Assembly: GCA_031387825.1 (NCBI GenBank)
Contig: JANNDO010000038.1
Span: 16,114-80,113, forward strand
Origin: Chitinophagaceae bacterium
GTDB lineage: Bacteria; Bacteroidota; Bacteroidia; Chitinophagales; Chitinophagaceae
Direction of reading: 5' to 3'
DNA: 64,000 nucleotides
The stretch's first letter is position 1, and each line of letters begins with the position of its first letter. A program made the position numbers and the translations under genes. Below, piece by piece: positions 16,039 through 64,000 of the stretch. Under the pieces are notes generated by a model. The model made no database searches, was not told the origin of the DNA, and was given only the letters and a program-made list of their open reading frames with translations.

Positions 16039-16347
16039 TTGAAAAAAACTGTTTCCATACTATTCATTATCATTTTCATGCTGCAGGCTTTGCCTGTAAT
16101 GTATTGGGCATATGGGTTTGATAATGGCAATATCTCTGTTGAATTGATAGATGATATGGACAATAGCGAAAAAGATAATAAAAAAGAAGAGGGGAAAGAC
16201 AGTAAAGAGAAGAATATTGCCGCAAAACATTATTACAATAAACTGGTGCCCGTCATGACTGCAAGGCTTACATTACTTCCTTCCGGAAACGCGGTCATTT
16301 TGCACCATGCCGATATCAACACACCCCCTCCTGATATTAACGCCTAA
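16039..16347 (+). CDS. Small hypothetical protein upstream of sulP: one hydrophobic helix, acidic/lysine tract, C-terminal TPPPD
   Basis: Open frame. TTG 16039 lies 5 nt after a TACTTTTG promoter element (16026-16033); the ORF track starts at 16021. Confidence 0.65.
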   Translation: MKKTVSILFIIIFMLQALPVMYWAYGFDNGNISVELIDDMDNSEKDNKKEEGKDSKEKNIAAKHYYNKLVPVMTARLTLLPSGNAVILHHADINTPPPDINA

Positions 16348-44942: not shown

Positions 44943-46208
44943 ATGGCATTTAAAAAATTAGATTTAATTGACCCTATCCTGAAAGCATTGGTTGCGGAGG
45001 GGTATTCAACCCCAACGCCCATACAAGCCCAGTCGATTCCATTAATTTTAGAAAGAAGGGATCTGCTTGGCTGTGCCCAAACCGGCACTGGTAAAACGGC
45101 CGCTTTTGCAATTCCTATTTTACAAATATTATATCAGCAGAAACAGGAAGAGCGTGGCCCCAGAAATATTAAAGTATTAATATTAACTCCTACAAGGGAG
45201 CTTGCTATACAGATAGACGAAAGTTTTGCGGCCTATGGAAAATATACCGGGCTTACCCATACCGTAATCTTTGGAGGGGTGTCCCAACAACAGCAAACCA
45301 ATATTTTGCGAAGAGGTATAGATATATTGGTTGCTACCCCGGGCCGTTTACTGGATCTGATAAGCCAGGGTTTTATTGATCTTAAATATCTTAAAATTTT
45401 CGTGTTGGATGAAGCGGATCGTATGCTGGACATGGGTTTCATACACGATGTAAAAAGAATCATTACCAAACTTCCTGCAAAAAGGCAAACGCTGTTTTTC
45501 TCTGCCACCATGCCTCAGGAAATTCAAAAGCTGGCCAATGTATTATTGACCAACCCGGCCAAGGTTGAAGTTACTCCTGCGGCATCTACAGTTGATGCGA
45601 TTGAACAAAATCTTTTTTATGTAGATAAACAAAATAAGCCTAACCTGCTTTTACATTTATTAAAAGACGAGGTAATTCTTACGGCCCTGGTATTTACACG
45701 TACTAAACATGGCGCAGATAAGGTTGTAAAATTTTTACACCGGGCTAATATAACGGCTGCCGCCATTCATGGAAACAAATCACAAAATGCCCGTCAAAAT
45801 GCATTGGGTAATTTTAAAACAGGAAAAACCCGTGTGTTGGTGGCAACAGATATTGCTGCCAGGGGAATTGATATTGACGATCTGTCGCATGTAATAAATT
45901 ATGAGCTTCCAAATGTTCCAGAAACATATGTACACCGTATTGGGCGTACGGGCAGAGCTGGCAATACCGGTATTGCCTTTTCATTTTGCGACGCAGACGA
46001 AAGAACAGAGTTAAAAGATATTCAAAAGCTGATCTGTAAAAATATTCCGGTAGTTAATGAACATCCTTTTCCATTAAGCGCTGCGTCTTTTGCGGCACCA
46101 ATAGCGGCTCCACAAAAACCAAATCAAAAACGCTTCAGGGGTTTTGGCTCTGCTGATAAAGGAAAGAACAGGAATTTTAATAGCAGGCGCCAGGCCCATA
46201 AAAATTAA
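44943..46208 (+). CDS. rhlE: DEAD-box RNA helicase (RhlE-like)
   Basis: AQTGTGKT, PTRELA, LDEADRMLD, SAT and HRIGRTGR. Confidence 0.92.
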   Translation: MAFKKLDLIDPILKALVAEGYSTPTPIQAQSIPLILERRDLLGCAQTGTGKTAAFAIPILQILYQQKQEERGPRNIKVLILTPTRELAIQIDESFAAYGKYTGLTHTVIFGGVSQQQQTNILRRGIDILVATPGRLLDLISQGFIDLKYLKIFVLDEADRMLDMGFIHDVKRIITKLPAKRQTLFFSATMPQEIQKLANVLLTNPAKVEVTPAASTVDAIEQNLFYVDKQNKPNLLLHLLKDEVILTALVFTRTKHGADKVVKFLHRANITAAAIHGNKSQNARQNALGNFKTGKTRVLVATDIAARGIDIDDLSHVINYELPNVPETYVHRIGRTGRAGNTGIAFSFCDADERTELKDIQKLICKNIPVVNEHPFPLSAASFAAPIAAPQKPNQKRFRGFGSADKGKNRNFNSRRQAHKN

Positions 46209-46275
46209 AATACCCAATGGCCGCAATATTTTCATTATTTAATATTGGTACTTTACACCCCTAAACTATTTAAAT

Positions 46276-46779
46276 ATGAAAAAAATCTTTTTGAGTCTTT
46301 GTACAGTGGTTTTAGCAACAATTTTTTTATCCTCCTGTAACAATGAGGTGGCTAAAACTGAAGCGCCTGCATTTAGCCTTGACAGCGCCAAGGCTGCCAT
46401 TGCTGCCAGCAACAAAATTTTTGGCGAATGCTTTGCAACCGGGGATTCCACAAAATTTACCAGTTGTTATACCAGCGATGGTTGTATCAATCCTTCCAAT
46501 ATGCCAAGAATGTGTGGCCCACAGGCTATTACAGCGTTCTTTAATGGCGGGTATAAAATGGGGGTTCGCAATATTAAGCTTACTACCGAAGAGGTAATGG
46601 GTGGAAAAGATGCGGTTGTGGAAGTTGGTAAATATGAAATGTTTGTTGGCGATAATATTTCTGTTGAAAAGGGTAAGTTTATTGTTATCTGGAAAGAAGA
46701 AAACGGAAAATGGAAAATGCACAGGGATATCTGGAATTCTGATAATCCTGCTCCGCCGCCGCCTCCGGCAGCAAAGTAG
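46276..46779 (+). CDS. DUF4440/SnoaL-like lipoprotein
   Basis: Lipobox LSSC and GKFIVIWKEENGKWKMHRDIWN. Confidence 0.85.
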   Translation: MKKIFLSLCTVVLATIFLSSCNNEVAKTEAPAFSLDSAKAAIAASNKIFGECFATGDSTKFTSCYTSDGCINPSNMPRMCGPQAITAFFNGGYKMGVRNIKLTTEEVMGGKDAVVEVGKYEMFVGDNISVEKGKFIVIWKEENGKWKMHRDIWNSDNPAPPPPPAAK

Positions 46780-46902
46780 AAAATAATTTTCTTTGTATAC
46801 GCCGAAGCTTTGCTTCGGTTTTTTATTTCTTTTTTTCTGGAGAAAAATGTTATTTTCATTTAGTCTTATTTTGTCCTTCAGCAGGTTTTAAATTGTTAAT
46901 GT

Positions 46903-47994
46903 ATGGCAACCCGTAATTATTTCTCTTACCTTTTAAATCCGCTGGAGTTATTGCGAACAAAAAAGGTATTACAGGTAAACCCAACGATTGCTTCGTCAAG
47001 GATAGAGCCTGATGAAATAAAACTGGTTGTTCATGATTACACCGCAGCGCAATATGATTTTAAAGAGTTGAAAAGTGCTCCGGATTGTTTTCCTTATATA
47101 GATTCTCCTTCAGTTTCCTGGATTAATGTAGATGGCTTAAGAAAAAAAGATGTTGAGTTGATCTGCAATCATTATGGCATCCATAATTTAATTATAGAAG
47201 ATATTTTAAGTTTTGGCCAGCGGCCTAAAATGGACGAAATAGACGGGCTTTTGTTTTGTGTATTAAACATGCTGTACTTCAATGAAAAAGATTCGGCTGT
47301 TGAAACAGAGCAGATCAGTATTGTGCTGGGCAAAAACTTTGTGATCAGTTTCCAGGAAGATGCGGCCAGAGATGTTTTTAATCCATTAAGGGACCGGCTA
47401 AAGGTTAACAACACAAAGGTCCGGCAAAACGGCGCTGATTTTTTGTTTTACTCTCTTATAGATATGATCGTTGATAATTACTTTGTGGTGATGGAAAAGC
47501 TGGGAGAAAAAATTGAAGGGCTGGAGGAGGATATTGTACGCAACCCCAACACCCGTAGCCTGGCTAAAATAAATATGCTTCGTAAGGAGATCATCATACT
47601 GAAAAGAAGTGTTTCTCCTGTCAGGGAACTGGTCAATGGTATTTTACGCAGCGATAGTGATTTGATCAATGAGCGTACGGAAAAATATTTTAAAGATATT
47701 TATGATCATATCTTACAGGCAAATGACCTGGCTGAGAACTACCGGGATATGATGATGAACCTGCACGACCTGTATCTAAGTAACGTGAATTTAAAAATGA
47801 ATGAAGTGATGAAGGTAATGGCGGTGGTAACCTGTTTGCTTGCGCCGGCAACGGTAATCGGTGGTATATTCGGAATGAATTTTGAAATCATACCCCTGCT
47901 TCATAATAAATGGGGGTTTTTTATTTCGGTGGGGTTAATGCTGTTTATTCCGCTGGCAATGATTAGAATGTTTAAGAAGCGGGGTTGGTTTTAA
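46903..47994 (+). CDS. corA: Magnesium/cobalt transporter
   Basis: QRPKMDE, DFLFYSLID, MNEVMK and GMNF signature. Confidence 0.96.
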   Translation: MATRNYFSYLLNPLELLRTKKVLQVNPTIASSRIEPDEIKLVVHDYTAAQYDFKELKSAPDCFPYIDSPSVSWINVDGLRKKDVELICNHYGIHNLIIEDILSFGQRPKMDEIDGLLFCVLNMLYFNEKDSAVETEQISIVLGKNFVISFQEDAARDVFNPLRDRLKVNNTKVRQNGADFLFYSLIDMIVDNYFVVMEKLGEKIEGLEEDIVRNPNTRSLAKINMLRKEIIILKRSVSPVRELVNGILRSDSDLINERTEKYFKDIYDHILQANDLAENYRDMMMNLHDLYLSNVNLKMNEVMKVMAVVTCLLAPATVIGGIFGMNFEIIPLLHNKWGFFISVGLMLFIPLAMIRMFKKRGWF

Positions 47995-48512
47995 ACCTCT
48001 GTTGTTTTCGGTTTCTTATAAATTGGTACTGTACTACAGGGCTCTCCATACATTATACTTTTTGCCACAGGTCTTAGCAGGCCTGTGATAGCTACATATG
48101 CTGTTTCGGAAATCGGTACCTCGCCACAACCTTTTATTACCACCTTTTTGTCCGTATAATCGGCCGTGTTTATTTTAAAAATATTTTTTAAAAAAAGAGC
48201 TTTATGTAAAAATTCTTTATCTCCAAAAACAACTTCGTTGGCTATGGGTTCCAGGTAGCTTGCCGCAAGCATATAGGCCCACATAGGAATAACAGCGTCT
48301 GCAGAACAGGTAAGCGCTATATTTTTTCCTTTATAGATAGAAAGGTCCAGAGTCTTCATTGTTTCCCTGAATTCTTTTTCTTTCAGTATCAATCCCATGA
48401 ACAAGTGGTCTTTCATATCAAATACCGCAGTCTCTTCTTTTGGGTAATATTCCTCCAGGTCAAGTGTAATCAGGCCGCTTTCAGATACTTTATTTACAAT
48501 CATTCCATCCAT
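47991..48512 (-). CDS. DUF2480 family protein
   Basis: IVNKVSESGLITLDL, CSADAVIPMWA, KGCG and SIMYGEPCSTVP. Confidence 0.9.
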   Translation of the reverse strand: MDGMIVNKVSESGLITLDLEEYYPKEETAVFDMKDHLFMGLILKEKEFRETMKTLDLSIYKGKNIALTCSADAVIPMWAYMLAASYLEPIANEVVFGDKEFLHKALFLKNIFKINTADYTDKKVVIKGCGEVPISETAYVAITGLLRPVAKSIMYGEPCSTVPIYKKPKTTEV

Positions 48513-48524
48513 GCGGCAAAGATA

Positions 48525-48558
48525 AACAAAACGGCTGCCACTTAAGCGGCAGCCGTTT
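48525..48558 (-). terminator. Intrinsic terminator of ppiD
   Basis: AAACGGCTGCC-ACTTAAGC-GGCAGCCGTTT with a T-rich tail on the minus strand. Confidence 0.85.
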
Positions 48559-48578
48559 CCTAATCCGGTAAAATATTA

Positions 48579-50714
48579 TTAATAGAACTTACTTCTGTTA
48601 TCTTTTATGCTGGCTTTTTTACGTATTCCCTCAAACCAGTTTGAAGTAACCTGGCCACGTAACATGCTTATTTGCTGAGTTCTAAATTGTGTTGTTTCTT
48701 CTGCAGTATTTGCTGCCTTGCCTGCTATACTGTTTAATTTAAAAACATATACGCCGGTTTTTCCTGCAATAGGTTCTGAAACCTTATTCATGTTGGCCTT
48801 ATTAATGCTTGCTCCAATTAATTTTGGTTCGAACCCAATGCCCTTAATTTCCTGCGCCTTGAATGTTAGAGATGAGTCCTGGCCTGCGGTTAAAACTTCT
48901 TTACTATAAACAGCGGCTGCGCTCTCTAATGTCGTTTTGCCGTTTAGTTTTTTTATTATTTCTGCAGCTTTCTTTTCATCCCTGATCACACCCTCGGCCA
49001 TTGGTCTTGCAGTAGCTGCGTCCTGCGTTCCCTCTTCCTGTATTTTATCTACAACGGCTACCACAAATTGATCTCCTATACTGTAAGGGTCGCTAACCTC
49101 TCCTTTCTTTGCGTCAAATATCCAGCGCACCAGTTGTCTTGCTTCCTGCAATTGTCCAACCTGGGCATCGTTTTCTTTTATTAAGCCGGGGTTAGTTATC
49201 TTTTGTATTCCGTTTTTCTTTAAATAAGCATCAAAGTTTTTTGGGTCTTTTTCTGCAGAAAGTTTTGTGGCTTCAAGACTGGCTTTATTGATTGTCTCCT
49301 CGCTGGCCAGTATTTCTTTAGCCATGAAGCCAATTTTATATGCCGGGCTCTGTCCTTTTTGTTTCAACACTTCAATTATATGATATCCGAATTGTGTTTT
49401 TACAATATCTCTCGACCCTTCTGGTTTTGTAAATACAAATTCATTAAATTCGGGAACCATTTGTCCGTAATAAATACTGGGGTATTCACCTCCCTTGTCT
49501 TTACTACCCTCATCTGTTGAGAATTGTTTTACCATAGTGCCAAAATCAGCACCGGCTTTAATTGCATTGAAAATACTATCTGCCTGCTTTTTTGCAATGC
49601 TATCTTCTAAAATTGGTTGGCCGTTTTGCGGGTTAACAGTACCAATTAGTATATGTCTGGCTTTTACACTGTCTGGCAAAGTTTTGCTTCCCAGTGTTTT
49701 TGCAAGTACATAATTTCCCTGGTCTACATAAGGGCCATATACTGTTCCTGCAGGAAATTTTACAATAGTATCAATTGCTATGCTTTTTATTTTTGATTTG
49801 GGTAAGTAGTTGGTATCAAAGTCAATGGCAGAAGTATTTCTGGCTAAAAAGGTTTTTACATTGGTTTCATTAATAAATTCTGCTTTTAATGATTCGATTA
49901 CAGCTTTTGTTCTTGTACTGTCAGCTGCATTTGGTAATTGGCTGAAAGCAACATAAGAAATCATTCGTCCTTCTTCCTGCTTAAACAGGTCTTTATTCTT
50001 TTTAACATATTTTTCAATCTCTGCATCGCTTACTTTAATAGTACTGTCTGCAATAATATTATAAGGAATGGCAACATAGCTTATATTGGCAAAGTTTTTA
50101 TTTTCCATAATATCTTTTTCCTCCATCCAGGCCGGGTAATAGGCACTGGCGTTTAAAAGAGCCAGATATTTTGTAGATACGCTTGCAATTTTTTGTGGGT
50201 CAATTACTTGTGCATCAATCATATCTCTTTGTTCGCCTTTCATTTTCTTGATATTACTAATAGCCTGGCTTACTTTACTCATATCAAGCATTCCGGTTGC
50301 GGGGTCTACCATTTGCTTATCCTGCATTAGTGGGTTAGATGGATCATTACTTGTTAAAACAGCATTAAGCTCTTTTGAAGTAAAATCAATTCCCAGTTTA
50401 GCCGCTTCATCATAAAATATTCTTTCTACCGTCATTTGGTTCCAGACCTGGTCACGTATCTGTCCAGAACGGGATGTACTCACCTTTGATCCGGATTGTT
50501 GTTCTTCCTGAGTCTCAATAACTTTTACCTTCTTATTAAACTCATCCAGCTCAATAGTTTTTCCGTTTACTTTACCAATACTGCCAGATGCGGAACTAAA
50601 CATGTTATTACTACCCTGTTTGGCATCCATCAGTATAAAACCTATTAAGCTCAATGATATTACCACAATTACGATTGCAGCTCCTTTTTCACGAATTCCC
50701 TGAATAATTTGCAT
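48579..50714 (-). CDS. ppiD: Membrane-anchored periplasmic chaperone/PPIase
   Basis: N-terminal MQIIQGIR plus TM anchor, SurA-like N domain, and parvulin domain (ARHILI, KTQFGYHII). Confidence 0.88.
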   Translation of the reverse strand: MQIIQGIREKGAAIVIVVISLSLIGFILMDAKQGSNNMFSSASGSIGKVNGKTIELDEFNKKVKVIETQEEQQSGSKVSTSRSGQIRDQVWNQMTVERIFYDEAAKLGIDFTSKELNAVLTSNDPSNPLMQDKQMVDPATGMLDMSKVSQAISNIKKMKGEQRDMIDAQVIDPQKIASVSTKYLALLNASAYYPAWMEEKDIMENKNFANISYVAIPYNIIADSTIKVSDAEIEKYVKKNKDLFKQEEGRMISYVAFSQLPNAADSTRTKAVIESLKAEFINETNVKTFLARNTSAIDFDTNYLPKSKIKSIAIDTIVKFPAGTVYGPYVDQGNYVLAKTLGSKTLPDSVKARHILIGTVNPQNGQPILEDSIAKKQADSIFNAIKAGADFGTMVKQFSTDEGSKDKGGEYPSIYYGQMVPEFNEFVFTKPEGSRDIVKTQFGYHIIEVLKQKGQSPAYKIGFMAKEILASEETINKASLEATKLSAEKDPKNFDAYLKKNGIQKITNPGLIKENDAQVGQLQEARQLVRWIFDAKKGEVSDPYSIGDQFVVAVVDKIQEEGTQDAATARPMAEGVIRDEKKAAEIIKKLNGKTTLESAAAVYSKEVLTAGQDSSLTFKAQEIKGIGFEPKLIGASINKANMNKVSEPIAGKTGVYVFKLNSIAGKAANTAEETTQFRTQQISMLRGQVTSNWFEGIRKKASIKDNRSKFY

Positions 50715-50740
50715 ACTTGTTATTTAATTAAAATGGAGGG

Positions 50741-50748
50741 CAAAAATA
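50741..50748 (-). promoter_or_regulatory. -7 promoter element (TATTTTTG) for ppiD
   Basis: CAAAAATA on the + strand, 26 nt from the start codon. Confidence 0.6.
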
Positions 50749-50749
50749 G

Positions 50750-51292
50750 GGTAAAATTAGATAGATTAGGTTATTTAAGGTTATTAAACCCATTAAAATA
50801 GCTATTAATCAGTCAAAACGGGGCTTATTGGGCTTTTATTAGAATACACAAAAAAGAATTCTTTTTTCCTGGTTTTGGGTTTTACACATAATCTTGTTGG
50901 TAAACCCATATTACTGTTGGTAATCACATAATTTAAGCCTAAAAAATATGCGAAAAATGAGTAAATATTTAAGAAAGACCTGATCAATTATTTTTTGTGG
51001 TACAAACTTATTGTTTATACAATAAGTATTAACAGGGCTTAATTAATAATATTAAATTTTTCTTTCCCCATAAACAATTATTAACCGGTGTGTATAAAGA
51101 TAAACTAATGGGGTAAACAGGTTACTTATAGCAGCTGCTTAACTCATCTATTTAAATGTTAATTTACTGTGGATGAGTGTTAATAAATTAAAGGTTTTAA
51201 TTTTGTAACAAGTTTATCAATTATTCTATCCACAAATTAACAGCCCTAGTAGTAATAGATGATTATATAAATAAATAGTATTAATACATATT
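50750..51292. other. Putative chromosomal replication origin (oriC)
   Basis: AT-rich 578-bp gap. Perfect TTWTNCACA boxes at 50880-50888 (+) and 51089-51097 (-). One-mismatch boxes at 51168-51176 (-), 51178-51186 (-) and 51226-51234 (+). Box-box-GCCC-trio-AT-rich module at 51226-51292. parS and mnmG nearby. Confidence 0.8.
51226..51292 (+). promoter_or_regulatory. Basal unwinding system-like module (tandem DnaA boxes, GC clamp, DnaA-trios, AT-rich DUE)
   Basis: CTATCCACA AATTAACA GCCC TAGTAGTAATAGATGAT TATATAAATAAAT. Confidence 0.72.
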
Positions 51293-52297
51293 ATGGTAGA
51301 TATTAACACTGCAAAATCAACAATTAAAACCAGGGGTTTTCTGGATGTCAGTATTGACCCTAACCTTGATTTGTTTGCAGAGATAGAGTCGTTGAAAAAG
51401 GAAAAGAACGCAATCATTCTGGCACATTATTACCAGGAGCCGGATATACAGGATGTTGCTGATTATATAGGTGATAGTTTAGGTCTTGCACAAAAGGCAG
51501 AGAAAACAATTGCGGATATGATTATTTTTGCCGGAGTTCATTTTATGGCTGAAACTGCAAAGATCCTTAACCCATCTAAAAAAGTATTATTACCTGATTT
51601 AAATGCTGGTTGTTCATTAAGTGATTCGGCACCCCCACCATTATTTAAGTTATTTAAGGAAAAACATCCTGGCCATATAGTTGTAACCTATATTAATTGT
51701 TCTGCCGGTATTAAGGCACTAAGTGATATAATCTGTACTTCTTCTAATGCTCAAAAAATCGTTGAAAGCTTACCGGCAGACCAGCCAATAATTTTCGCTC
51801 CAGATAAGAACCTTGGGGCTTATATTAATAAGCAGACGGGTAGAAATATGGTATTATGGAATGGTGCCTGCATGGTTCATGAAATATTTAGTATGGAGAA
51901 AATTTTAAAATTAAAAATACGTCATCCAAAAGCTAAAGTAATTGCTCATCCGGAATGTGAAGCTCAGGTTTTAACTCTTGCTGATTTTATCGGTAGCACA
52001 ACCGGTTTATTGAATTATACCCAGAAAAGTGAAGCTCAGGAATTTATTGTTGCAACCGAAACGGGTATTTTACACCAAATGCAAAAATATAATCCATATA
52101 AAATTTTTATACCTGCACCCCCTAATAATAATTGTGCATGCAATGATTGCCCACATATGAAATTAAACACCCTTGAAAAATTATATTTGTGCTTAAAGTA
52201 TGAACTACCGGAAATTGAGATGGACGAATCACTACTGAAGGCAGCAAAGAAGCCAATAGATACGATGTTAAAAATAAGTGCTCAATATGGATTATAA
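51293..52297 (+). CDS. nadA: Quinolinate synthase
   Basis: [38 protein letters not shown] and CPHMKLNT. Confidence 0.97.
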
Positions 52298-52460
52298 TAT
52301 TATAAAAAAATAATAGAGCGTGGTTTAATAATCTGTCAAATTTTTGTAGATAAGGAGTTGACTTAAATTTTCTACCATAGATTGGTACTCCTTAAAGTAT
52401 GATTACTGTAAAAAGGAAAAGTTGGTATTAGTGCAGAAGAATTACTGAAAAAAAGGAAAT

Positions 52461-52492
52461 TTTGTAGTTTCTAATAATCAAAACTACATTCG
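52461..52492 (+). promoter_or_regulatory. chrA promoter (TTTG-N20-TACATTCG) overlapped by an 8-bp inverted repeat
   Basis: TGTAGTTT (52463-52470) and AAACTACA (52481-52488) with a 10-nt spacer. Confidence 0.5.
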
Positions 52493-52521
52493 TAAGAAAT
52501 AAATAATTACAAACTCTCTAT

Positions 52522-53775
52522 GTGATGAATCTGTTGCGGCATATCCCTTTCTTAAAAGCTGTGTTCGTGCATAGTATTTCCGCATTTGGAGGACCACAAG
52601 GACACACAGGAATGGTTTTAAAGACCTTTGTAGAGCGTAGAAGGGATCTTACAAAAGAAGAGCTGATGGAATATATTTCTTTTTGCCAGCTTTTACCGGG
52701 TGCTTCATCAACTCAAACACTAACTCTTATTGGATATAAACGGGGAGGAGTAAAGTTAGCAGTTCTTACTCTTGTTATTTGGATATTACCAGCGTGTACA
52801 TTAATGGGGGGGTTATCTTTTATTGTAGGTAGTATTGAAAAAGAAGATATTCAGACAAGCCTGTTTCAGTTTATTCAACCAATGGCAATTGGCTTTTTAG
52901 TATATGCTGCAGTTAACGCATTTCATATAAGCGTTAAAAACCAAATCACAAGAATTATTATGTTCATTGCGTTGGTTGGCACATATTTATTTTTTAAAAC
53001 CCCCTGGATAATTCCGATATTAATTATATCTGGAGGTGTTGTAACAAATTTCAGCAATAAACGTATTCCGGAAAAAGAGATTATAAAACCAAAACAAATT
53101 CGATGGACAAACATCTGGCTTTTTGTACTGATTTTTGCAATAGCAGGAATATTAAGCGAAACGGCGAGAAAACAAAACTGGGAGAACAAAAAGAGGTATA
53201 ATTTATTTGAAAATTTTTATCGTTTCGGAAGTTTTGTTTTTGGAGGAGGAGACGTTTTAATTCCTTTAATGCTTGACCAGTATGTTGTAAGGCCCACATC
53301 AGAAAAAGTTGTAAAGAAAAACGCTGATGTATTAAAATTAGACAGAGAAGAACTATTAACAGGAGCTGGAATAGTAAGGGCAATCCCGGGCCCGGTTTTT
53401 TCAATTGCATCATTTATGGGGGGAATAGTATTAAAAAAAGAGGGTACAAGGGGCCAGCTGTTGGGTTGTATAATTGGCTCTATTGCTATATTTCTTCCTA
53501 GTGCACTTCTAGTACTCTTTTTTTTTCCGGTCTGGCAACAACTAAAAAAATTTGTAATTGTATATAGGTCACTTGAAGGAATTAATGCTGCAGTAGTCGG
53601 AATCATGATAGCAGCAACTCTTTATTTGTTAAAAGACGTTTCTATTGTTTCTTTTAATATAATTAGCCTGGTAAATATCAGTGTTATAGCCGGTACATTT
53701 TTAGCTCTTCAATTTTCAAAAACCCCCCCCCCACTTATTGTTCTGTTTTGTTTACTAATTGGCTGGATTTTTTAA
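52522..53775 (+). CDS. chrA: Chromate ion transporter (CHR family, long chain)
   Basis: AFGGP, QLLPG, FVFGGG and AIPGP repeated in two halves. Confidence 0.9.
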
Positions 53776-54348
53776 TCAGGTGCGGTAATATCCCCATTTT
53801 TCAATCTCTTCTTTAACAGAGTCAGGCACAAAAAAGCGAATTGACTTTCCGTGTTTAATAAACTCACGTATAAGTGTAGAAGAAATTTGAAGTAACGGGC
53901 CGTTAATTATGTTAATTTTGGCACCGAACGTTTCTTCTATATCAAACCCCGGTCTCTTATAAATATAAAAGAGATGATTTTTTACAATAGTTTCATAATT
54001 CTTCCATTTATTAAGATTCCTAAAACCATCACTCCCCATTATAATAGAAAATTCGTGCTCTGGAAATTTTTCTTTTAAATAAGATAAACTATCAACAGTA
54101 TATGATGGTTTGGGTAGGCTAAACTCAACATTACTAGCCTTTAAATTCTTCTCACCATCTATAGCGGTCTTTATCATATGTAACCTATGATACATATTCA
54201 ACAAATTTGTTGATTTTTTGAATGGGTTTTGTGGAGAAACAACAAACCAGACCTGGTTCAAATCAGAAGACATTAAGGAATAATTTGCAACAATTAGGTG
54301 TCCAACATGGACAGGGTTAAAGGAACCAAAATAAAGTCCAATTTTCAT
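53776..54348 (-). CDS. nadD: Nicotinate-nucleotide adenylyltransferase
   Basis: GSFNPVHVGH, SPQNPFK, PSYT, IMGSD and ISST. Confidence 0.95.
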   Translation of the reverse strand: MKIGLYFGSFNPVHVGHLIVANYSLMSSDLNQVWFVVSPQNPFKKSTNLLNMYHRLHMIKTAIDGEKNLKASNVEFSLPKPSYTVDSLSYLKEKFPEHEFSIIMGSDGFRNLNKWKNYETIVKNHLFYIYKRPGFDIEETFGAKINIINGPLLQISSTLIREFIKHGKSIRFFVPDSVKEEIEKWGYYRT

Positions 54349-54378
54349 AAAGAGTTAAAAATCAAAGTAATAAAAAAG

Positions 54379-54615
54379 TTAGACAACCAGCACCTCTTCT
54401 ACCCATATCATTTCCGCCTCATCTAAACGAAGGCTTAACCGATATCCAGCTATGGTTATTGAGATTGGATCCCCCAGGGGAGCAACTTGATCTACTCTTA
54501 CTATTTCACCAGGAATACACCCCATTTCCATAAGTTTCAAAAAGAGATCATTAGTTTCAAATTCTTTTATAACCGCATTAGACCCTGCGGCCATTTCAGA
54601 TAATTTTTTTTTCAT
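54379..54615 (-). CDS. feoA: FeoA family protein
   Basis: KLMEMGCIPG, APLGDP and SLRLDEA. Confidence 0.92.
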   Translation of the reverse strand: MKKKLSEMAAGSNAVIKEFETNDLFLKLMEMGCIPGEIVRVDQVAPLGDPISITIAGYRLSLRLDEAEMIWVEEVLVV

Positions 54616-54705
54616 TTATTTTATCAAATCATTTCAACCATAATTAAATTATTACAAATGTATCAAATCAATATTGTTGTATAATTTCGATATTAGAAAA
54701 TCCCA

Positions 54706-55131
54706 ATGCAAAAAATACAGTTTATTAATCATAAAAGAAATCCGGACCTTAGAAATAAAAAGCTCCTAAAGGTTTTTATTCTCGAATTATTTGCAAAGGA
54801 GAGAAAAAAAATAAAAAAAATAACATATATATTTTGCTCTGATAAACAAATTATTAATATTAATAAAATCTTTTTAAAACATAATTATTATACTGATATT
54901 ATTAGTTTTGATTTATCGCAACTGCCAGAGGAGACAGAAGCAGAAATTTATATAAGCATAGACAGGGTAAAGGATAACGCTTCAAAAGAAGGGGTGTCTT
55001 TTAATGAAGAGCTACATAGGGTGATTTTTCACGGAGCCCTTCATTTTTGTGGTTATAATGACAAAAAAAGAGAAGAGGCAAAGGAAATGAGAAAAAAAGA
55101 AAACCAATATCTTAATAAGTATTTTGAATAA
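54706..55131 (+). CDS. ybeY: rRNA maturation endoribonuclease YbeY
   Basis: YTDIISF, EIYIS and zinc motif HGALHFCGYND. Confidence 0.93.
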   Translation: MQKIQFINHKRNPDLRNKKLLKVFILELFAKERKKIKKITYIFCSDKQIININKIFLKHNYYTDIISFDLSQLPEETEAEIYISIDRVKDNASKEGVSFNEELHRVIFHGALHFCGYNDKKREEAKEMRKKENQYLNKYFE

Positions 55132-55171
55132 AGCTTTTACTTTATGCCAGTTTTGGATAATAAAATTGCTT

Positions 55172-55187
55172 GGTTTCACGTGGAACA
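55172..55187. promoter_or_regulatory. parS centromere-like site
   Basis: GGTTTCACGTGGAACA matches TGTTTCACGTGNAACA at 15/16 positions. Intergenic, just before mnmG. Confidence 0.82.
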
Positions 55188-55246
55188 AATAACCTCTAAA
55201 CCAGATTAAAACTACAAAAAACGATCACTTATCTTTGCTGATTAGA

Positions 55247-57115
55247 ATGTTTCCAAAATACGACATAATAGTAGTGGGCGCCGGCCATGCCGGATGTGAA
55301 TCAGCCGCCGCCGCTGCAAACCTTGGCAGTAAGGTTTTATTGATAACCATGAATTTACAAACGATTGCTCAAATGAGCTGTAACCCAGCTATGGGGGGTA
55401 TTGCCAAGGGGCAAATTGTTCGTGAGATAGACGCAATGGGTGGATATAGCGGGGTGGTTACCGATAAAAGCATGATTCAATTCAGGATGCTGAATAGATC
55501 AAAAGGGCCAGCCATGTGGAGTCCAAGAGCCCAAAGCGACAGAATGTTATTTTCAACCACATGGAGAGAAATGCTTGAGAACACAAAAAACATAGATTTT
55601 TATCAGGATACTGTAACCGGGATATTAGTAAGTGATAAAAAAATAACTGGGGTTTGCACAGGATTAGGGCATAAAATAATGGCAAAATCAGTTATTTTAA
55701 CCAATGGAACTTTTCTTAATGGAGTAATTCATATTGGAGAAAAAAATTTTGGTGGTGGAAGAATGGCAGAAAAACCGTCAATTGGAATTACCGAACAACT
55801 TGTTACTTTAGGGTTTGAATCTGACAGACTAAAAACTGGAACTCCTCCAAGAGTTGATGGCAGGAGCCTTGATTATTCAAAAATGGAAGAACAAAAAGGA
55901 GATGATGAAATTGTAGGGTTTAGCTATTTAAGCCTTAATCTGATTAGGCCAGAGCTGCAAAAAAGTTGTTGGATTACTTATACAAACGAAAAAGCACATA
56001 ACCTTTTAAAAACGGGTTTTGAGAAAAGCCCAATGTACCAAGGAAGAATTCAGGGGACTGGCCCAAGATATTGCCCAAGCATAGAAGATAAAATAAACCG
56101 CTTTTCACAACGGGATAGACATCAATTATTTGTAGAGCCAGAGGGACACAATACTATTGAAATATACGTCAACGGATTCTCCACTTCATTGCCAGAAAAT
56201 GTTCAATATCAATCACTTAGATTAATTCCTGGGTTTGAAAATTGTAAAATGTTCAGGCCAGGATACGCAATAGAATATGATTATTTTCCACCGACACAAC
56301 TTAAACTTAGCCTCGAAACTAAACTAATAGAGAACTTGTTTTTTGCGGGCCAAATAAATGGAACAACCGGTTATGAAGAAGCCGCATGTCAAGGGTTGAT
56401 GGCCGGAATAAACGCCCATCAGAAAGTTAGGGAGCAAAATCCTTTTATTTTAAAACGAAGTGAAGCTTACATTGGTGTTCTAATTGATGATTTGATAAAT
56501 AAAGGCACGGATGAGCCCTACCGTATGTTTACAAGTCGGGCAGAATTCAGGACTTTATTGAGACAGGATAATGCAGATCTGCGGCTTACCGAAAAAGCTT
56601 ATCTATTAGGCCTTGCTTCTCAAGAAAGAATGGATACAGTAAAAACCAAAAGAGAAAATGTCGAAAATATAAAAAAGACACTATCTGTATTAAGTATAGA
56701 GCCTGAAGAATCCTCCCAATATTTAGAGAGCATTCAATCATCAACATTACTTGCCAAACAAAAAGCATCTCAAATTTTATTGAGACCAATGGTTGGAATA
56801 AAAGAAATGATAGAAAATATCCCAAAAGTAAAAGAAACCCTTAGGGATTATGACAATGAAACCCTTGAACAAGCAGAAATACAAATTAAGTACGATACTT
56901 ATATTGAAAAAGAAAAAGAACTGGTTTCAAAAATGAGTCAGCTCGAAGACTTAATAATACCTGATAATTTTAATTATGAAAAATTGGTTTCGCTTAGTAA
57001 CGAAGCCCGGCAGAAGTTTACAAAAATAAAACCAGGAACATTAGGACAAGCATCAAGAATTTCGGGAGTTAATCCAAGTGATGTTCAAATTCTAATGGTT
57101 TTTATGGGAAGATAA
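55247..57115 (+). CDS. mnmG: tRNA uridine-5-carboxymethylaminomethyl(34) synthesis enzyme (GidA)
   Basis: GAGHAGCE, MSCNPAMGG, GPRYCPSIEDK and AGQINGTTGYEEAA. ATG 55247 follows TATCTTTG (55230-55237). Confidence 0.98.
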   Translation: MFPKYDIIVVGAGHAGCESAAAAANLGSKVLLITMNLQTIAQMSCNPAMGGIAKGQIVREIDAMGGYSGVVTDKSMIQFRMLNRSKGPAMWSPRAQSDRMLFSTTWREMLENTKNIDFYQDTVTGILVSDKKITGVCTGLGHKIMAKSVILTNGTFLNGVIHIGEKNFGGGRMAEKPSIGITEQLVTLGFESDRLKTGTPPRVDGRSLDYSKMEEQKGDDEIVGFSYLSLNLIRPELQKSCWITYTNEKAHNLLKTGFEKSPMYQGRIQGTGPRYCPSIEDKINRFSQRDRHQLFVEPEGHNTIEIYVNGFSTSLPENVQYQSLRLIPGFENCKMFRPGYAIEYDYFPPTQLKLSLETKLIENLFFAGQINGTTGYEEAACQGLMAGINAHQKVREQNPFILKRSEAYIGVLIDDLINKGTDEPYRMFTSRAEFRTLLRQDNADLRLTEKAYLLGLASQERMDTVKTKRENVENIKKTLSVLSIEPEESSQYLESIQSSTLLAKQKASQILLRPMVGIKEMIENIPKVKETLRDYDNETLEQAEIQIKYDTYIEKEKELVSKMSQLEDLIIPDNFNYEKLVSLSNEARQKFTKIKPGTLGQASRISGVNPSDVQILMVFMGR

Positions 57116-57127
57116 AATACGAATATT

Positions 57128-57643
57128 ATGAGCCTGAATTTTTTAACAGATACCCCCAAAGAGTTAATATTTGAAACTGTTGCAGAGCACCTGCATCTTA
57201 AAAATTTAAAAATTAATAAGCAGGATAACACGAGGCCCTGGGGCGGATTTTTTGTAATAGATGAAGCAGAGGCAGAAAAATTTATACAATTTTACTTCCC
57301 ACTCCTCACCCAGGAAGAGTTAAATATTTCAGGCAAACTAAGCCCCAAAATATTAGTGGTAGCGCCAAATAAAAGATTAAGCTGGCAGTATCATCATCGA
57401 CGTGCAGAAATCTGGAAATTAATTGGAGGAACTGCAGGAGTTGTAACTAGCGATACTGATGAAGAAAAAGAGACCAGATATTTAGGTATTGGAGATATTG
57501 TTCAACTTAAACAAGGGGAGAGACACAGACTGATTGGCTTAGAAAGCTGGGGAATAATTGCAGAGATCTGGCGCCATACTGATGCTAAAAGCCCCAGTGA
57601 TGAAGATGACATAGTAAGGGTTCAGGATGATTTTGGAAGGTAA
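57128..57643 (+). CDS. Cupin protein, mannose-6-phosphate isomerase type II C-terminal-like
   Basis: RPWGGF, RLSWQYHHRRAEIW, GERHRL and DIVRVQDDFGR. Confidence 0.85.
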   Translation: MSLNFLTDTPKELIFETVAEHLHLKNLKINKQDNTRPWGGFFVIDEAEAEKFIQFYFPLLTQEELNISGKLSPKILVVAPNKRLSWQYHHRRAEIWKLIGGTAGVVTSDTDEEKETRYLGIGDIVQLKQGERHRLIGLESWGIIAEIWRHTDAKSPSDEDDIVRVQDDFGR

Positions 57644-57650
57644 AATTATT

Positions 57651-60143
57651 CTACAGACGAAGGGGAGCCTTTTTATTTACAGCATCAGAATCTTTGAGCG
57701 TTTCCAAAACCATCCTTACTTCACCATAACTGATATCTTTTGGTAAATTATCAATTAATGTTTTATGGCTCAGGGAACCGTGTTTGGAAACAGCCCCTTT
57801 GACTAATTCCTGTTTTTCTTTACTTACCAATTCGTTGATATTAATTTCACCGACCCCTACAAAATATGCAAGGTGACCCTCAATGGTACTGGTTGCTAAA
57901 TTTCTTTCTTTCGCAATAGCAGCAGTATCTTTTCCCTCTTTATATAAATTTAAAGAAATTGTTTTAGTATCAAGTTTTGTTTCAGAAATTTTCGGCGCTC
58001 TCTCTTTTTTGGGCATATATAATTTTGCGCCCATGTTGCTTTCCAGATTATACCTTTCACAAAAACTTTCAACAGCCTCAAGTATTTCCTCTCCATATTT
58101 TTCGGCCTTAGCTTTTCCAAAACCGCTGATTTGCATTAAATCTTTTTTGGTCAGCGGCAGGTAAGTACAAATTTCCTGTATCGTAGCCTGATTTGCAACC
58201 ATATAAATCGGTTGACCGGTGTCAGCACAAATTGTATTTCGCCAACGCCTTAGCGTATCATATAATTCAGCATTTGACAAACCAGCTTGAACCTCCTTCG
58301 TCTCACTTGCATAACAGTTAATATTATACCGGGGCTGAACATATTTTAATTTATGCTGTAAAAATCCAGTAATAGAAAAAGGCTGTTTACAAAATTGCAT
58401 ATAGAAATTACAAATATACAGAGCCAAACCAAAGTCATTTAGTTTCTCATTAATTGGAGTAGCCGTTTCCTTATGCTCTGTTATTAATGGGTGATTTCTT
58501 AATTCTTTAATGTAACCATCTAATTTTGGAACAAAATGATTGGAAGCGTCAGAGATTCTTTTTTGCAGCAGTGCGTTATTTTCTATGACCGCCCCTCCTT
58601 TCATTAGCTCTGCAACCAGTCCGATGAATTTTAAGCCAACAGGTTTATCCGTAGCTAAGCGTTGTTTAAAATTTTCAATCCAGTCAACAGCCCCAGCATT
58701 TAATTTTTCTTTATGTTGTTTTATCTGAAAACCTAATTGCTCAACGACTACTGTTATTTCGGCAAAAGAAAATATTTCTTCCAACAGTTGTTGTGTAAAT
58801 AATTGCCTTGCCCCGGCAAACCGATCTTCTAAAGAGCCTTTATAAGAAAGCGATTGTTGACCTTTAATTACATTTTCATTACTGTATATGGCCGCCGAAG
58901 GGATCTTACTCAATAAAACTATACCCCCTAAGCTTGTACAACGGCTTAATGCTACATACACTTGCCCGCTGCTAAATGCAGCGCCGGCATCAATCATTAC
59001 TTTTTCAAAAGTCAAACCCTGGCTTTTGTGTATAGTAATGGCCCACGCAAGTCTTAGGGGATATTGTGTAAAGGTGCCTAGCGTTTCCTGTTCAATCTTT
59101 CCATCAGCACGGTTTAGTGTGTAACGGCTGTTTTCCCAGGTGTCCAACCCTACCTCAATATCGATGCCATCACTTTCCACAATTATTTTTGCTTTTTCTA
59201 GAGATTTTATCACTCCGATTTTACCATTGTAATATCGTTTTTGAATCATATCACTTTTTAAAAACATCACTTGAGCCCCCTCTTTTAGAGACAACTCAAA
59301 ATCTACCGGGTACATATTTTCCGGAAAATCATTTTCAATTTCAGCCTTGTAAGTAAACGTAGCCTTGTCAATTTTATATAGTTGCTGTTGGTTAATCAGG
59401 TCGGCCTGGTTATTGTGAGAGGTAAGTGTAATATATTTTTCATCTGGCGATGGGCTAAACCCGGGGTCAAAGCGTAAATGCAAATCTTCAAAATCATCTG
59501 ATTCCATATGGTTGTTACGAACCTTGTTAAGCAACCGTACAAAACTTTCTTCTTTCTGGCGGTAAATTTTATTTAGCTCTATTAGTAATGGCGATTGCTC
59601 TTTAATAGCCAGGCTGTCAAAGAAGAAAGGGGATGCATAATATTCACTTAATATATTCCATTCATGGTTTTGCACCACAGGAGGTAGCTGGTGCAGATCG
59701 CCAATGCATAATAATTGAACGCCGCCAAAAGGTAAATGATAATTTCTCCTGGCGTGTTTTAAAATAGTATCAATAGCGTCCATCACATCGCACCGCACCA
59801 TGCTTATTTCATCAATTACCAATAATTCCATTTTACGTAGTATCTGCAGCCGTTGTTTATTATACCTGATTTTCGCAAGCAACTCATCTTTATTATTTTT
59901 TGTAGGAAGAAAAGGATGAAAGGGTAATTGAAATAAGCTATGCAGCGTAACGCCTCCGGCATTTATTGCAGCCACACCCGTTGGAGCAGCCACTATAATA
60001 TTTTTTGTAGAATTATCTTTCAGGTATTTCAAAAAAGTAGTCTTGCCTGTACCTGCTTTTCCTGTAAGAAAAAGGTTTTCGTTTGTTTCAGTAACAAAGC
60101 GATAAGCCAGGTCAAAGAGTTCATTTCTTTCTATTGTTTGCAT
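57651..60143 (-). CDS. PIF1/RecD-like SF1B helicase with HRDC and C-terminal helix-turn-helix domains
   Basis: GKAGTGKTT, APTGVAA, IDEISM, GDLHQLPP, TIHKSQGLT and YVALSR. HRDC region (LRRWR...GFGKAK) and HTH (IAKERNL..STIEGH). Confidence 0.9.
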   Translation of the reverse strand: MQTIERNELFDLAYRFVTETNENLFLTGKAGTGKTTFLKYLKDNSTKNIIVAAPTGVAAINAGGVTLHSLFQLPFHPFLPTKNNKDELLAKIRYNKQRLQILRKMELLVIDEISMVRCDVMDAIDTILKHARRNYHLPFGGVQLLCIGDLHQLPPVVQNHEWNILSEYYASPFFFDSLAIKEQSPLLIELNKIYRQKEESFVRLLNKVRNNHMESDDFEDLHLRFDPGFSPSPDEKYITLTSHNNQADLINQQQLYKIDKATFTYKAEIENDFPENMYPVDFELSLKEGAQVMFLKSDMIQKRYYNGKIGVIKSLEKAKIIVESDGIDIEVGLDTWENSRYTLNRADGKIEQETLGTFTQYPLRLAWAITIHKSQGLTFEKVMIDAGAAFSSGQVYVALSRCTSLGGIVLLSKIPSAAIYSNENVIKGQQSLSYKGSLEDRFAGARQLFTQQLLEEIFSFAEITVVVEQLGFQIKQHKEKLNAGAVDWIENFKQRLATDKPVGLKFIGLVAELMKGGAVIENNALLQKRISDASNHFVPKLDGYIKELRNHPLITEHKETATPINEKLNDFGLALYICNFYMQFCKQPFSITGFLQHKLKYVQPRYNINCYASETKEVQAGLSNAELYDTLRRWRNTICADTGQPIYMVANQATIQEICTYLPLTKKDLMQISGFGKAKAEKYGEEILEAVESFCERYNLESNMGAKLYMPKKERAPKISETKLDTKTISLNLYKEGKDTAAIAKERNLATSTIEGHLAYFVGVGEININELVSKEKQELVKGAVSKHGSLSHKTLIDNLPKDISYGEVRMVLETLKDSDAVNKKAPLRL

Positions 60144-60163
60144 TGTAATAAAGATAAGAGGAT

Positions 60164-60204
60164 AAAAAGAAAAGGGCGCTGATTAAATTGATTAATCAAC
60201 GCCC
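60164..60204 (-). terminator. Intrinsic terminator of ssb
   Basis: 13-bp stem GGGCG(C/T)TGATTAA with one G-U pair, followed by TTTTCTTTT on the minus strand. Confidence 0.8.
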
Positions 60205-60212
60205 GGTAAAAA

Positions 60213-60560
60213 TTAAGCTGTTGGTTTTTCACCACCCATCAGCAGTAACTCATTTACCTGAACTTCGGTAATGTATTTTTTATTGCCGTCTTTATCATTA
60301 TAACTGCGGTTTATGAGCTTGCCCTCAATGGCAACTTCTTTACCCTTAGTTAAATACTTTTCAGCAATATCTGCAACCTTACCCCAGGCCACCAAATTGT
60401 GCCAGGTTGTTTCGGTTACTTTTTCACCCTTAGCGTTACGATAGCTTTCATTTGTTGCTACACTAAAGCGGGCAAGTTTTTTACCAGATTCAGTAGTTTT
60501 TACTTCTGGTGCGTTTCCTAAATGTCCAATTAACTGAACTTTGTTTTTTAATGCGTACAT
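60213..60560 (-). CDS. ssb: Short single-stranded DNA-binding protein lacking the acidic tail
   Basis: NKVQLIGHLG, FSVATNE, TTWH and GKEVAIEGKL. Ends ...GGEKPTA. Confidence 0.92.
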   Translation of the reverse strand: MYALKNKVQLIGHLGNAPEVKTTESGKKLARFSVATNESYRNAKGEKVTETTWHNLVAWGKVADIAEKYLTKGKEVAIEGKLINRSYNDKDGNKKYITEVQVNELLLMGGEKPTA

Positions 60561-60771
60561 AGTTTTAAGTTTTGTGTCTTGCCTGAGGCTAGACGGTTTT
60601 TAATTTATTTCAACCAACCGGTAAGACGTCATTTCCGATTGACAACACAAAGATGCGGCGGCAAAAAAGCGGTAGTCGGAGATTATACTTTTACTTACCT
60701 TTATAAGCGTATGTAAACGGGTATATCGGAAAAAAAGAAAACATAATATTTACCAAACTCAATCCTGTACT

Positions 60772-61146
60772 ATGTTAAAGCAAAAAGAAGAAAAAATCTG
60801 CCTGCTTTGCAATAAGGTGCTTAAAGGACGAAGCGATAAGAAATTTTGCGACGATTATTGCCGGGCGGCCTATAATAATGATCTAAAAAGCGCTTCAAAT
60901 AACTTTATCAGGAATGTAAATAACGCGTTGGGTAAAAACAGGCGAATACTTGAAAACCTTCTTCGCGATAACGAGGCAACCGCAAAAGCAAACAGAGATA
61001 AGCTTATTGAAAAAGGGTTTCAATTTAAATACCTGACAAATATCCATAAAACAAAAAACGGTCACACATACTATTACTGTTATGAATATGGCTATCTACC
61101 CCTGGAGAATAATTGGTTTTTGATTGTTAAAAGAAACGAAGAATAA
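60772..61146 (+). CDS. Hypothetical zinc-ribbon protein (DUF2116-like)
   Basis: CLLC...GRSDKKFCDDYCR motif and YYYCYEYGY. Confidence 0.8.
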   Translation: MLKQKEEKICLLCNKVLKGRSDKKFCDDYCRAAYNNDLKSASNNFIRNVNNALGKNRRILENLLRDNEATAKANRDKLIEKGFQFKYLTNIHKTKNGHTYYYCYEYGYLPLENNWFLIVKRNEE

Positions 61147-61235
61147 AATTTGATTCATGCCGCAAGCAACAATTAAATCATATTTCCTATCTGAGATTAT
61201 GCAAAAATTATAAAGTATTTTTACTGGCTTAATTA

Positions 61236-63182: not shown

Positions 63183-63188
63183 ATTAAA

Positions 63189-64000
63189 CTATTGTATTGA
63201 AAATTCTGCTGTCTTATTTTTTGGAAAAACCACAAAACTCTTGGGTTCTTTTATCTTTTCCTTTGGAAAATCTTCAGCCTGCAATTCAATCCTCCGGGTA
63301 ATATCACTCAAAGAAGAAAGACGTTGTAATGTATAAGGAATAGTATCAAGCCCTGATGCAAATTTTAAGATATAACTGTAGATAGCAAACAGGCTTCCGG
63401 CCATAATGGTTGTGCTGTGAAGGTTCTTGGATATTATTAAAGAAACCGCAATTACAACAAGTACCATAATTTCCATGAAGCCAAAATTCCAGGCTTCTTT
63501 ATCTGAAATACGAACCTGCCACTTGCGTAAATTATTATAATGATGACGAATGGTTGTGTTATCTCCGTTCGAGATAATGTCTACCTGCTTTTCCAGCTCA
63601 TCATTTTTATGTTTATTAAGCTGTTTCATTTTTTTTCCGTAGAAAAAACTTATGATTACAACCGGGGCTAAAATTACAAGACAAATGCCAACAACAGTTT
63701 TATCATAAAAAAACAATAAAATCAACGAACCTAAAATATTGTACGCTGCTTCAATAACGTATACAAGGTCGTGTTCTAAAAAATCAACAAACTCCCTGGC
63801 TAGCGTAGAATGAGCACTTAATTTAGATACTTCAATTTTATTATACCTGCGGCTCAAAAATTTTATAACCAGTGAATTGTAAATAGCCGAATAAGTACGG
63901 GTATCATACATATGACGGATAGTTCCAACTACTAAATAAATAAGATGAACTATGGTTAAAACAATTAATCCCCTGTAACTTCCCTTTATAAGATCGTTAA
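63189..64000 (-). CDS. ABC transporter six-transmembrane-domain-only protein (5' partial)
   Basis: Frame is open to the window edge. DTRTYS...REFVDFLE and multiple TM helices. No ATPase motifs before the stop. Confidence 0.78.
   Translation of the reverse strand, partial: NDLIKGSYRGLIVLTIVHLIYLVVGTIRHMYDTRTYSAIYNSLVIKFLSRRYNKIEVSKLSAHSTLAREFVDFLEHDLVYVIEAAYNILGSLILLFFYDKTVVGICLVILAPVVIISFFYGKKMKQLNKHKNDELEKQVDIISNGDNTTIRHHYNNLRKWQVRISDKEAWNFGFMEIMVLVVIAVSLIISKNLHSTTIMAGSLFAIYSYILKFASGLDTIPYTLQRLSSLSDITRRIELQAEDFPKEKIKEPKSFVVFPKNKTAEFSIQ

Follow-up and report, generated by a model that had tools for sequence, protein, structure and literature searches.

The basal unwinding system of the Bacillus subtilis replication origin is said, in Richardson's work of 2016 and 2019, to consist of DnaA boxes 6 and 7, a set of DnaA-trios, and an A/T-rich 27-mer. 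Here we describe a predicted counterpart of that system in a 64,000-nucleotide stretch of DNA (hereafter the window), which covers positions 16114 to 80113 of contig C33 within the 44-contig, 3.75-Mb assembly of an uncultured Chitinophagaceae bacterium. We propose that the gap between a ppiD-like gene and nadA (50715-51292; 578 bp, 74% A/T) is very probably the chromosomal origin of replication (oriC) of this organism, and the evidence presented comprises the sequence anatomy of the gap, its conservation, its uniqueness in the genome, a switch in strand polarity, and a peak of sequencing depth in the neighborhood.

Origins of this kind have been predicted before. In the survey of Pelliciari 2021 (PMC8287927), supplement file 3 gives the B. 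subtilis system as 3'-AATAGGTGT TTAGGTGT CCGG GATGATAATGAAGATGAT-5', in agreement with the sequence given in the first-pass annotation of this DNA, and predicted unwinding systems are also given for the DoriC origins of Chitinophaga pinensis DSM 2588 (ORI93020100; CAAAAGTGT ATAAGTGT CGG GATTATCATCAC) and N. koreensis GR20-10 (ORI95030423; AATAGGTGA TTAAGTGT CGG CATTATCATTAT). Read on the top strand, the former is GTTTTCACA-TATTCACA-GCC-CTAATAGTAGTG and the latter TTATCCACT-AATTCACA-GCC-GTAATAGTAATA, and both are orthologous to CTATCCACA-AATTAACA-GCC-CTAGTAGTAATA in the window. Both are computational predictions for cultured strains and, like the origin proposed here, both are unlinked to dnaA. 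They match the nadA-upstream sequences of congeneric loci in our collection (L011, L018, L036, and L012), and judging from these congeners, the two DoriC origins would adjoin nadA as well. The box-trio mechanism is already known, and by its sequence the origin described here is an ortholog of database-predicted origins; the first-pass annotation had overstated its novelty, as the same type of site was already predicted in DoriC for cultured relatives. Our literature search found no described link between oriC and nadA in Bacteroidetes.

A predicted unwinding module and DnaA boxes upstream of nadA

The right end of the gap (51226-51292) carries tandem boxes, a GC spacer, trios, and an A/T tract in that order, and the first-pass annotation had read it correctly, including its CTA-GTA-GTA-ATA run. 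The parts of the module are as follows.

51226-51242, plus strand: tandem DnaA boxes, CTATCCACA (51226-51234, one mismatch) and the abutting AATTAACA (51235-51242)
51243-51245, unstranded: GC spacer, GCC, placing the first trio 11 nt from the first box
51246-51257, minus strand: four DnaA-trios, CTA GTA GTA ATA on the top strand and 3'-GAT CAT CAT TAT-5' on the bottom strand, with a central A in each
51258-51292, unstranded: A/T-rich unwinding tract of 35 nt, 89% A/T, reaching the nadA ATG

Pelliciari 2021 recognizes an unwinding system by a DnaA box, usually in a tandem pair, that lies no more than 16 bp from at least three trios (3'-NAN-5', with GAT preferred next to the box), and CTATCCACA and AATTAACA followed by GCC and 3'-GAT CAT CAT TAT-5' are recognized by this rule. 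A box combined with at least four NTA trios within 16 bp was matched 11 times genome-wide, and the only intergenic match is the one in this gap. No 35-mers of the gap are richer in A/T than those of the tract at 51258-51292, which also contains the least stable 40-mers in a 900-bp scan (50601-51500) and is strongly conserved among close relatives. In an alignment of 14 such gaps (A1), the CCACA and ACA of the tandem boxes are invariant, as are positions 2 and 3 (T and A) of the trios.

The comparison of nadA-upstream regions that the first-pass annotation had suggested extends this picture. Eighty nadA loci were taken from public genomes, and of the 32 closest (L002-L033, Chitinophagaceae/Chitinophagales), 31 have the box-GC-trio module upstream of the gene. 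In most Chitinophagaceae loci the trios start 46-57 nt ahead of the nadA ATG, and the Saprospiraceae, Rhodothermales, and cyanobacterial nadA loci of the same set lack the module. A variant was seen in Sphingobacteriaceae (L064, L068, and L051), 80-130 nt upstream of nadA, where tandem boxes (e.g., TTATCCCCA-TTTTCCACA or TTATACACA-GTATCCACA) are followed by a short spacer, TAATAAACAATAG, and an A/T tract, and where only the first two triplets match the NAT trio pattern.

Conservation is not confined to the module, as about 12 box positions are kept along the entire gap in A1. In the window, the boxes to the left of the module are grouped as follows.

50880-50923, both strands: distal box group, TTTTACACA (plus, 50880), TTACCAACA (minus, 50895), and TTACCAACA (minus, 50915)
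51012-51034, both strands: weak box pair, GTATAAACA (minus, 51012) and GTATTAACA (plus, 51026)
51078-51097, both strands: convergent box pair, TTATTAACC (plus, 51078) and TTATACACA (minus, 51089)
51157-51186, minus strand: three reverse boxes, TGTTAATTT, TGTGGATGA, and TGTTAATAA, with spacings of 11 and 10 bp, pointing toward the unwinding module

Measured against the textbook consensus TTATCCACA, three boxes have one mismatch (51089 minus, 51168 minus, and 51226 plus) and four more have two, giving seven with at most two mismatches in 578 bp. No box in the gap is perfect, and the five boxes with zero or one mismatch that had been claimed at first reading come down to the three with one; the reverse-oriented left cluster with about 10-bp spacing claimed at the same time (51157-51186) is indeed there. 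Each of the distal boxes has two mismatches to TTATCCACA and one to TTATN[A/C]ACA, the motif of this lineage, and the two reverse ones are aligned with TGTTAATAA or TGTGGATAA in 13 relatives. The block of the weak pair, TTTATACC...TATTAACAGG, is kept in A1 with an invariant ACA, the convergent pair is kept as ATTAACCGGTGTTTATAA, or as ATCCACnnnnGTGGATAA in Puia and Niastella, and the positions of the three-box array are kept in 13 of 14 sequences, its third box being GTTAATAA or GTGGATAA depending on the relative. At several A1 positions, a weak TTAACA-type box of the window is a canonical GTGGATAA in relatives, which argues that these are DnaA boxes and not chance A/T words.

A mechanism can be proposed on the model of the B. 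subtilis system. ATP-DnaA would assemble on some 10 to 14 mostly low-affinity TTATN[A/C]ACA-type boxes (50880-51242), and the tandem boxes at 51226-51242 would orient the DnaA oligomer onto the four bottom-strand trios. The next step would be melting, by this oligomer, of the 35-nt A/T tract between the trios and the nadA start codon; helicase would be loaded at the melted tract, and replication would proceed bidirectionally, with ParB bound to a parS site 3.9 kb to the right possibly handling segregation of the origin.

Strand polarity, sequencing depth, and parS sites

As raw GC skew was unusable, we used GC skew at codon third positions, corrected for gene strand by separating it into one term for gene strand and one for replication. 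The replication term has one sign along whole contigs, and in five genomes from two orders it switches from minus to plus at 0-45 kb from nadA. One comparison was with G003, a 1.85-Mb contig of a Chitinophagales metagenome-assembled genome that is collinear with all 96 kb of C33. In G003, the term does not rise above zero at any of the 8 samples taken between -974 and -274 kb, and 6 of the 7 taken between +275 and +854 kb are positive. Across a contiguous 400 kb it is negative in all six windows on the left and positive in all seven on the right, with the local switch 0-28 kb from nadA and the local minimum 28 kb to its left. A change-point test on per-gene skew in G003 was too imprecise to be of use, its best split, at 854 kb, being driven by one strongly negative block. 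When the contigs of our own assembly were ordered by synteny with G003, all contigs on the left (C8, C18, C36, C38/C41, and C24) were negative and all contigs on the right (C21, C27, C28, C25, C9, C14, C3/C20, and C12/C15) were positive.

The same polarity is found in other relatives. In the complete genome of Chitinophaga sp. E66, the switch is at nadA within ~30 kb and dnaA is 780 kb off; in Pedobacter frigiditerrae, it lies between -10 and +10 kb of nadA and dnaA is 941 kb off. In P. heparinus S10_4.1 (nadA at ~262 kb, G009:C2), it falls within 0-20 kb of nadA. Across the four relatives, the switch is 0-30 kb from nadA, on either side. As a marker of origin position, nadA holds in Chitinophagaceae and in Pedobacter (Sphingobacteriaceae), and the suggestion to that effect in the first-pass annotation gains from both the module at nadA across Chitinophagaceae loci and the polarity switch at nadA in Pedobacter.

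The source of the assembly is a freshwater-sediment metagenome, of which run X1 contains 99% of the words sampled from 46001-56000. Length-weighted word depth in the Logan contigs of this run was determined at seven loci, which are given here with their distance from the gap.

C33 (this locus), 0: 45.3x
C41, -474 kb: 41.2x
C9, +375 kb: 39.2x
C18, -874 kb: 37.3x
C15, +775 kb: 36.6x
C19, unplaced, beyond the G003 contig: 35.4x
C43, unplaced, beyond the G003 contig: 33.8x

On both sides, depth becomes lower the farther a locus is from the gap (Spearman rho = -0.62, p = 6e-4, for contig pieces), and extrapolation of the slope gives a peak-to-trough ratio of ~1.5. The trend is not attributable to GC bias, since C9 and C19 are lower in GC than the locus and yet lower in depth. 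A coverage peak had been named at first reading as a check on the origin, and in this coarse version the peak is at C33. About 90% of run X1 was covered, and no contig in that part spans 48250-51250; the one for this segment probably falls in the other ~10%. A contig of X3 spans 50682-51174 with 5 differences and derives from a related strain in which the box positions are retained.

A candidate for one further marker of origins lies to the right of nadA.

55172-55187, unstranded: parS-like palindrome GGTTTCACGTGGAACA, 14/16 to TGTTTCACGTGAAACA, in the ybeY-mnmG spacer

Taken by itself, this site is at chance level, as there are two such 14/16 sites in the genome (palindrome TGTTNCACGTGAAACA). 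In relatives, 23 parS sites with at most two mismatches were found in 908 kb of nadA loci, versus 0.24 expected (~100-fold), and nearly all of them fall between +3 and +6.5 kb relative to the start of nadA.

Weighing of the alternatives

A number of our observations weigh against placing oriC in the gap. By the textbook consensus its cluster is ordinary, as the gap ranks ~9th of 792 intergenic gaps (p = 0.013) and more than 35 other 600-bp windows contain at least three such boxes. The window's own boxes are weak, and the motif TTATN[A/C]ACA, with which the gap has 10 boxes and ranks first of the 792 (p = 2e-4), was derived from relatives, so that this ranking test is not fully independent. 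Raw GC skew is too weak and noisy in Chitinophagaceae; on our own contigs it is noisy and apparently goes from plus to minus across the site, in G003 the left-right difference over 400 kb has p = 0.2, and in samples from Chitinophaga sp. E66 it is weak (p = 0.02). With third-position skew, the flank to the right of the gap in our own genome is negative between about +6 and +40 kb (window 57600-64000 to the end of C33), which puts our own cumulative minimum at +44.6 kb and not in the gap. The orthologous stretch of G003 has positive skew, no rearrangement or misassembly is visible in the flank, and we tentatively treat it as local noise, since ~5% of 25-gene windows elsewhere deviate likewise. 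Gene orientation in our own scaffold is unbiased (plus-strand fraction, 0.50 left and 0.53 right); it is significantly biased in G003 and E66, and being mixed overall it is given little weight. The orientation of rRNA operons in relatives fits an origin at nadA and does not discriminate against one at dnaA. The depth test comprises seven loci in one sample, with assembler word depth and with distances taken from a relative's gene order, and it resolves the peak to a few hundred kb only. Finally, DnaA binding, unwinding, and helicase loading at the gap are postulated by analogy, from a case made at the level of sequence.

These points have to be set against what other explanations would require. 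A DnaA-controlled regulatory or titrating (datA/DARS-like) site serving the nadA and ppiD promoters, with the true origin elsewhere within ~50 kb, would make sense of the TAnnTTTG elements in the gap and of the tandem boxes just downstream of the inferred nadA start, and our own skew minimum at +44.6 kb and the position of dnaN ~35 kb to the right could be cited in its favor, but we consider it improbable. No other gap in the neighborhood is long, A/T-rich, or box-rich, and on C21, the neighboring contig of C33, the gaps from 30 to 64 kb are all 286 bp or less with none origin-like, the gap before dnaN being 126 bp. Trios with an A/T tract are a signature of unwinding and not of titration, and this is the sole intergenic module in the genome; moreover, the polarity switch is 0-30 kb from nadA in four relatives, and the depth peak and the clustering of parS would be left unaccounted for. 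A promoter region and an origin are in any case compatible, as promoters inside origins are normal. An origin beside dnaA on contig C1, to which the nadA-side cluster would be secondary, has in its favor that dnaA-linked origins are the commonest arrangement and that pooled third-position skew on C1 is 0.000 to the left and +0.052 to the right of dnaA (with only 10 genes on the right). We nevertheless regard it as very unlikely, for the gaps flanking dnaA hold no box with one mismatch or fewer, the upstream one being 141 bp and the downstream one only 59% A/T, C1 has no box-trio module, and in E66 and P. frigiditerrae dnaA is 780 and 941 kb from the switch, with the sign of the skew constant up to dnaA.

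The resemblance might also be due to chance in an A/T-rich promoter gap, or reflect a structured nadA leader RNA or the operator of a NAD regulator, and the unexceptional count of textbook boxes and the very strong conservation of the final 45 nt ahead of the nadA ATG speak in their favor. A mere operator would not lead one to expect the polarity switch, the depth peak, and the clustering of parS, and box positions are kept across genera, with canonical boxes in relatives. The nadA leader gave no relevant Rfam match at E <= 1, and its predicted fold (-7.5 kcal/mol, z = +0.74) is no more stable than that of shuffled sequence, on which grounds a structured leader or riboswitch was rejected. The NrtR regulons described for Bacteroidetes contain pentose genes, nadA not being among them (PMC2330246), and an NrtR operator was rejected as well. 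We give this group of explanations hardly any credence. The view of the gap as chromosomal origin, which the first-pass annotation had already taken, draws its strength from the conservation of the site, its match to the DoriC modules, the polarity switch, the depth peak, and the lack of a box cluster beside dnaA.

Placement of the origin allows contigs to be ordered and oriented and growth rates to be estimated from peak-to-trough ratios in metagenomes. For origin prediction in Bacteroidota, our results suggest searching upstream of nadA with the relaxed motif TTATN[A/C]ACA and not beside dnaA, and for origin finding in Chitinophagaceae they suggest that strand-corrected codon-third-position skew works where raw GC skew fails. 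Some database origins of Sphingobacteriaceae may need revision.

The -7 promoter motif of Bacteroidota is TAnnTTTG, and the gap has a match to it on either side. The putative promoters and the genes that border or neighbor the gap are as follows.

48579-50714, minus strand: ppiD-like gene for a periplasmic chaperone/prolyl isomerase of 711 amino acids, the left border of the gap (Pfam SurA_N_2, Rotamase_3, and Rotamase_2)
50741-50748, minus strand: likely ppiD promoter, TATTTTTG matching TAnnTTTG, 27 nt before the ppiD ATG
51198-51205, plus strand: likely nadA promoter, TAATTTTG matching TAnnTTTG in a motif scan
51293-52297, plus strand: nadA (quinolinate synthase, 334 amino acids), the right border of the gap and the positional marker (Pfam NadA, E = 4.5e-123)
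55235-57115, plus strand: mnmG (gidA), ~4 kb from the gap (Pfam GIDA, E = 4.8e-164)

The ppiD-side match falls inside a conserved block of A1, GGCAAAAATAGGGTAAAA. On the nadA side, TAATTTTG has the phased box array to its left and the tandem boxes to its right, and its block TTTTAATTTTG is kept in A1, with TAACTTTG or TACATTTG at the equivalent place in Chitinophaga and other genera. Going by these motifs, the nadA transcript would start near 51212, ~14 nt before the tandem boxes, and transcription of nadA probably runs through the boxes, the trios, and the A/T tract, such that divergent ppiD and nadA promoters would lie inside the origin. It is tempting to speculate, although we consider it rather doubtful, that the origin and nadA are functionally interlocked, with the nadA 5' leader being the DNA of the unwinding element. 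If true, this would account for the distance of 46-57 nt that the unwinding element keeps to the nadA ATG throughout Chitinophagaceae and for the polarity switch at nadA in Pedobacter too; initiation would be coupled to transcription of an NAD-synthesis gene, or DnaA would be a repressor of nadA, and the DoriC call for Pedobacter heparinus (~16 kb) would be misplaced.

Judging from the relatives of NadA, the lineage is a Ferruginibacter-like member of the Chitinophagaceae. The ppiD-like gene has an ortholog at the equivalent position in G003. To the right of nadA are a chromate transporter, a nadD-like gene, ybeY, and mnmG/gidA, the last of these being the classic neighbor gene of E. coli-type origins. 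The dnaA gene is located on a separate contig, C1, and dnaN is at C21:56737-57939, separate from dnaA and oriented toward the origin. By synteny, dnaN is ~35 kb to the right, and in G003 the distance is 56 kb; the statement at first reading that neither gene lies within 50 kb to the left or 12 kb to the right needs the correction that dnaN is not distant. Two box clusters near the skew minimum, C21:47690-47849 and C21:60225-60374, were considered and rejected as short gaps with CACAAAG/CTTTGTG repeats. Both of these gaps share the palindromic element CACAAAG...CACGAAGCACAC...CTTTGTG, which inflates DnaA-box counts, and the elements may constitute a repetitive extragenic palindrome-like family. 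Two open reading frames, 57651-60143 (minus strand, 831 amino acids) and 29695-34104 (plus strand, 1470 amino acids), have no ortholog at the syntenic position of G003 and look like lineage-specific insertions; the 1470-amino-acid gene has a strongly negative third-position skew (-0.19). An in-frame TAG breaks the dnaA match of Chitinophaga sp. E66 into two pieces (G001:C1:108782-109266), which is either a sequencing error in the complete genome or a disrupted gene, and the P. heparinus assembly (G009, 5.7 Mb) has two full-scoring matches to the DnaA AAA+ domain (G009:C4:5423-5908 and G009:C5:294403-294888), reflecting either two dnaA copies or a contaminant.

Comparison with described origins

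Among the described systems, the predicted origins of C. pinensis and N. koreensis are orthologs of the one in the window, and the boxes of the window are more degenerate than theirs (TTAACA versus CCACA). The DoriC entry for Pedobacter heparinus DSM 2366 is a different sequence, at ~16 kb (PMC8287927), and that origin may be misplaced. A box-to-trio spacing of 11 nt is shared by the window with Niastella koreensis and Salinibacter ruber; in B. subtilis it is 12 nt (PMC8287927).

The likeness to B. subtilis begins with two abutting boxes in the same direction, which in B. subtilis are boxes 6 and 7, TTATCCACA AATCCACA, and continues with a short GC spacer, GCC here and GGCC there, that leaves the box-to-trio distances of 11 and 12 nt. 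In both, trios with a central A have their 3' end facing the boxes, the first trio is GAT, and an A/T tract follows. The two differ in that B. subtilis has six trios and the window four clear ones (GAT CAT CAT TAT), their function here being predicted from sequence, and in the second box, which is AATTAACA here and AATCCACA there. In addition, the B. subtilis origin lies beside dnaA and depends on two Firmicutes proteins, DnaD and DnaB.

The proposed origin also resembles E. coli oriC (gidA/mnmG-oriC-mioC), as both are far from dnaA and close to mnmG, both have many low-affinity boxes, and both have flanking promoters, putative ones in the window, with transcription into or away from the unwinding region. 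In contrast to the site described here, E. coli oriC has 13-mer unwinding repeats, IHF and Fis sites, and control by GATC and SeqA; it is without a tandem-box-plus-trio module of this form, and it adjoins mnmG, which at the locus described here is 4 kb off.

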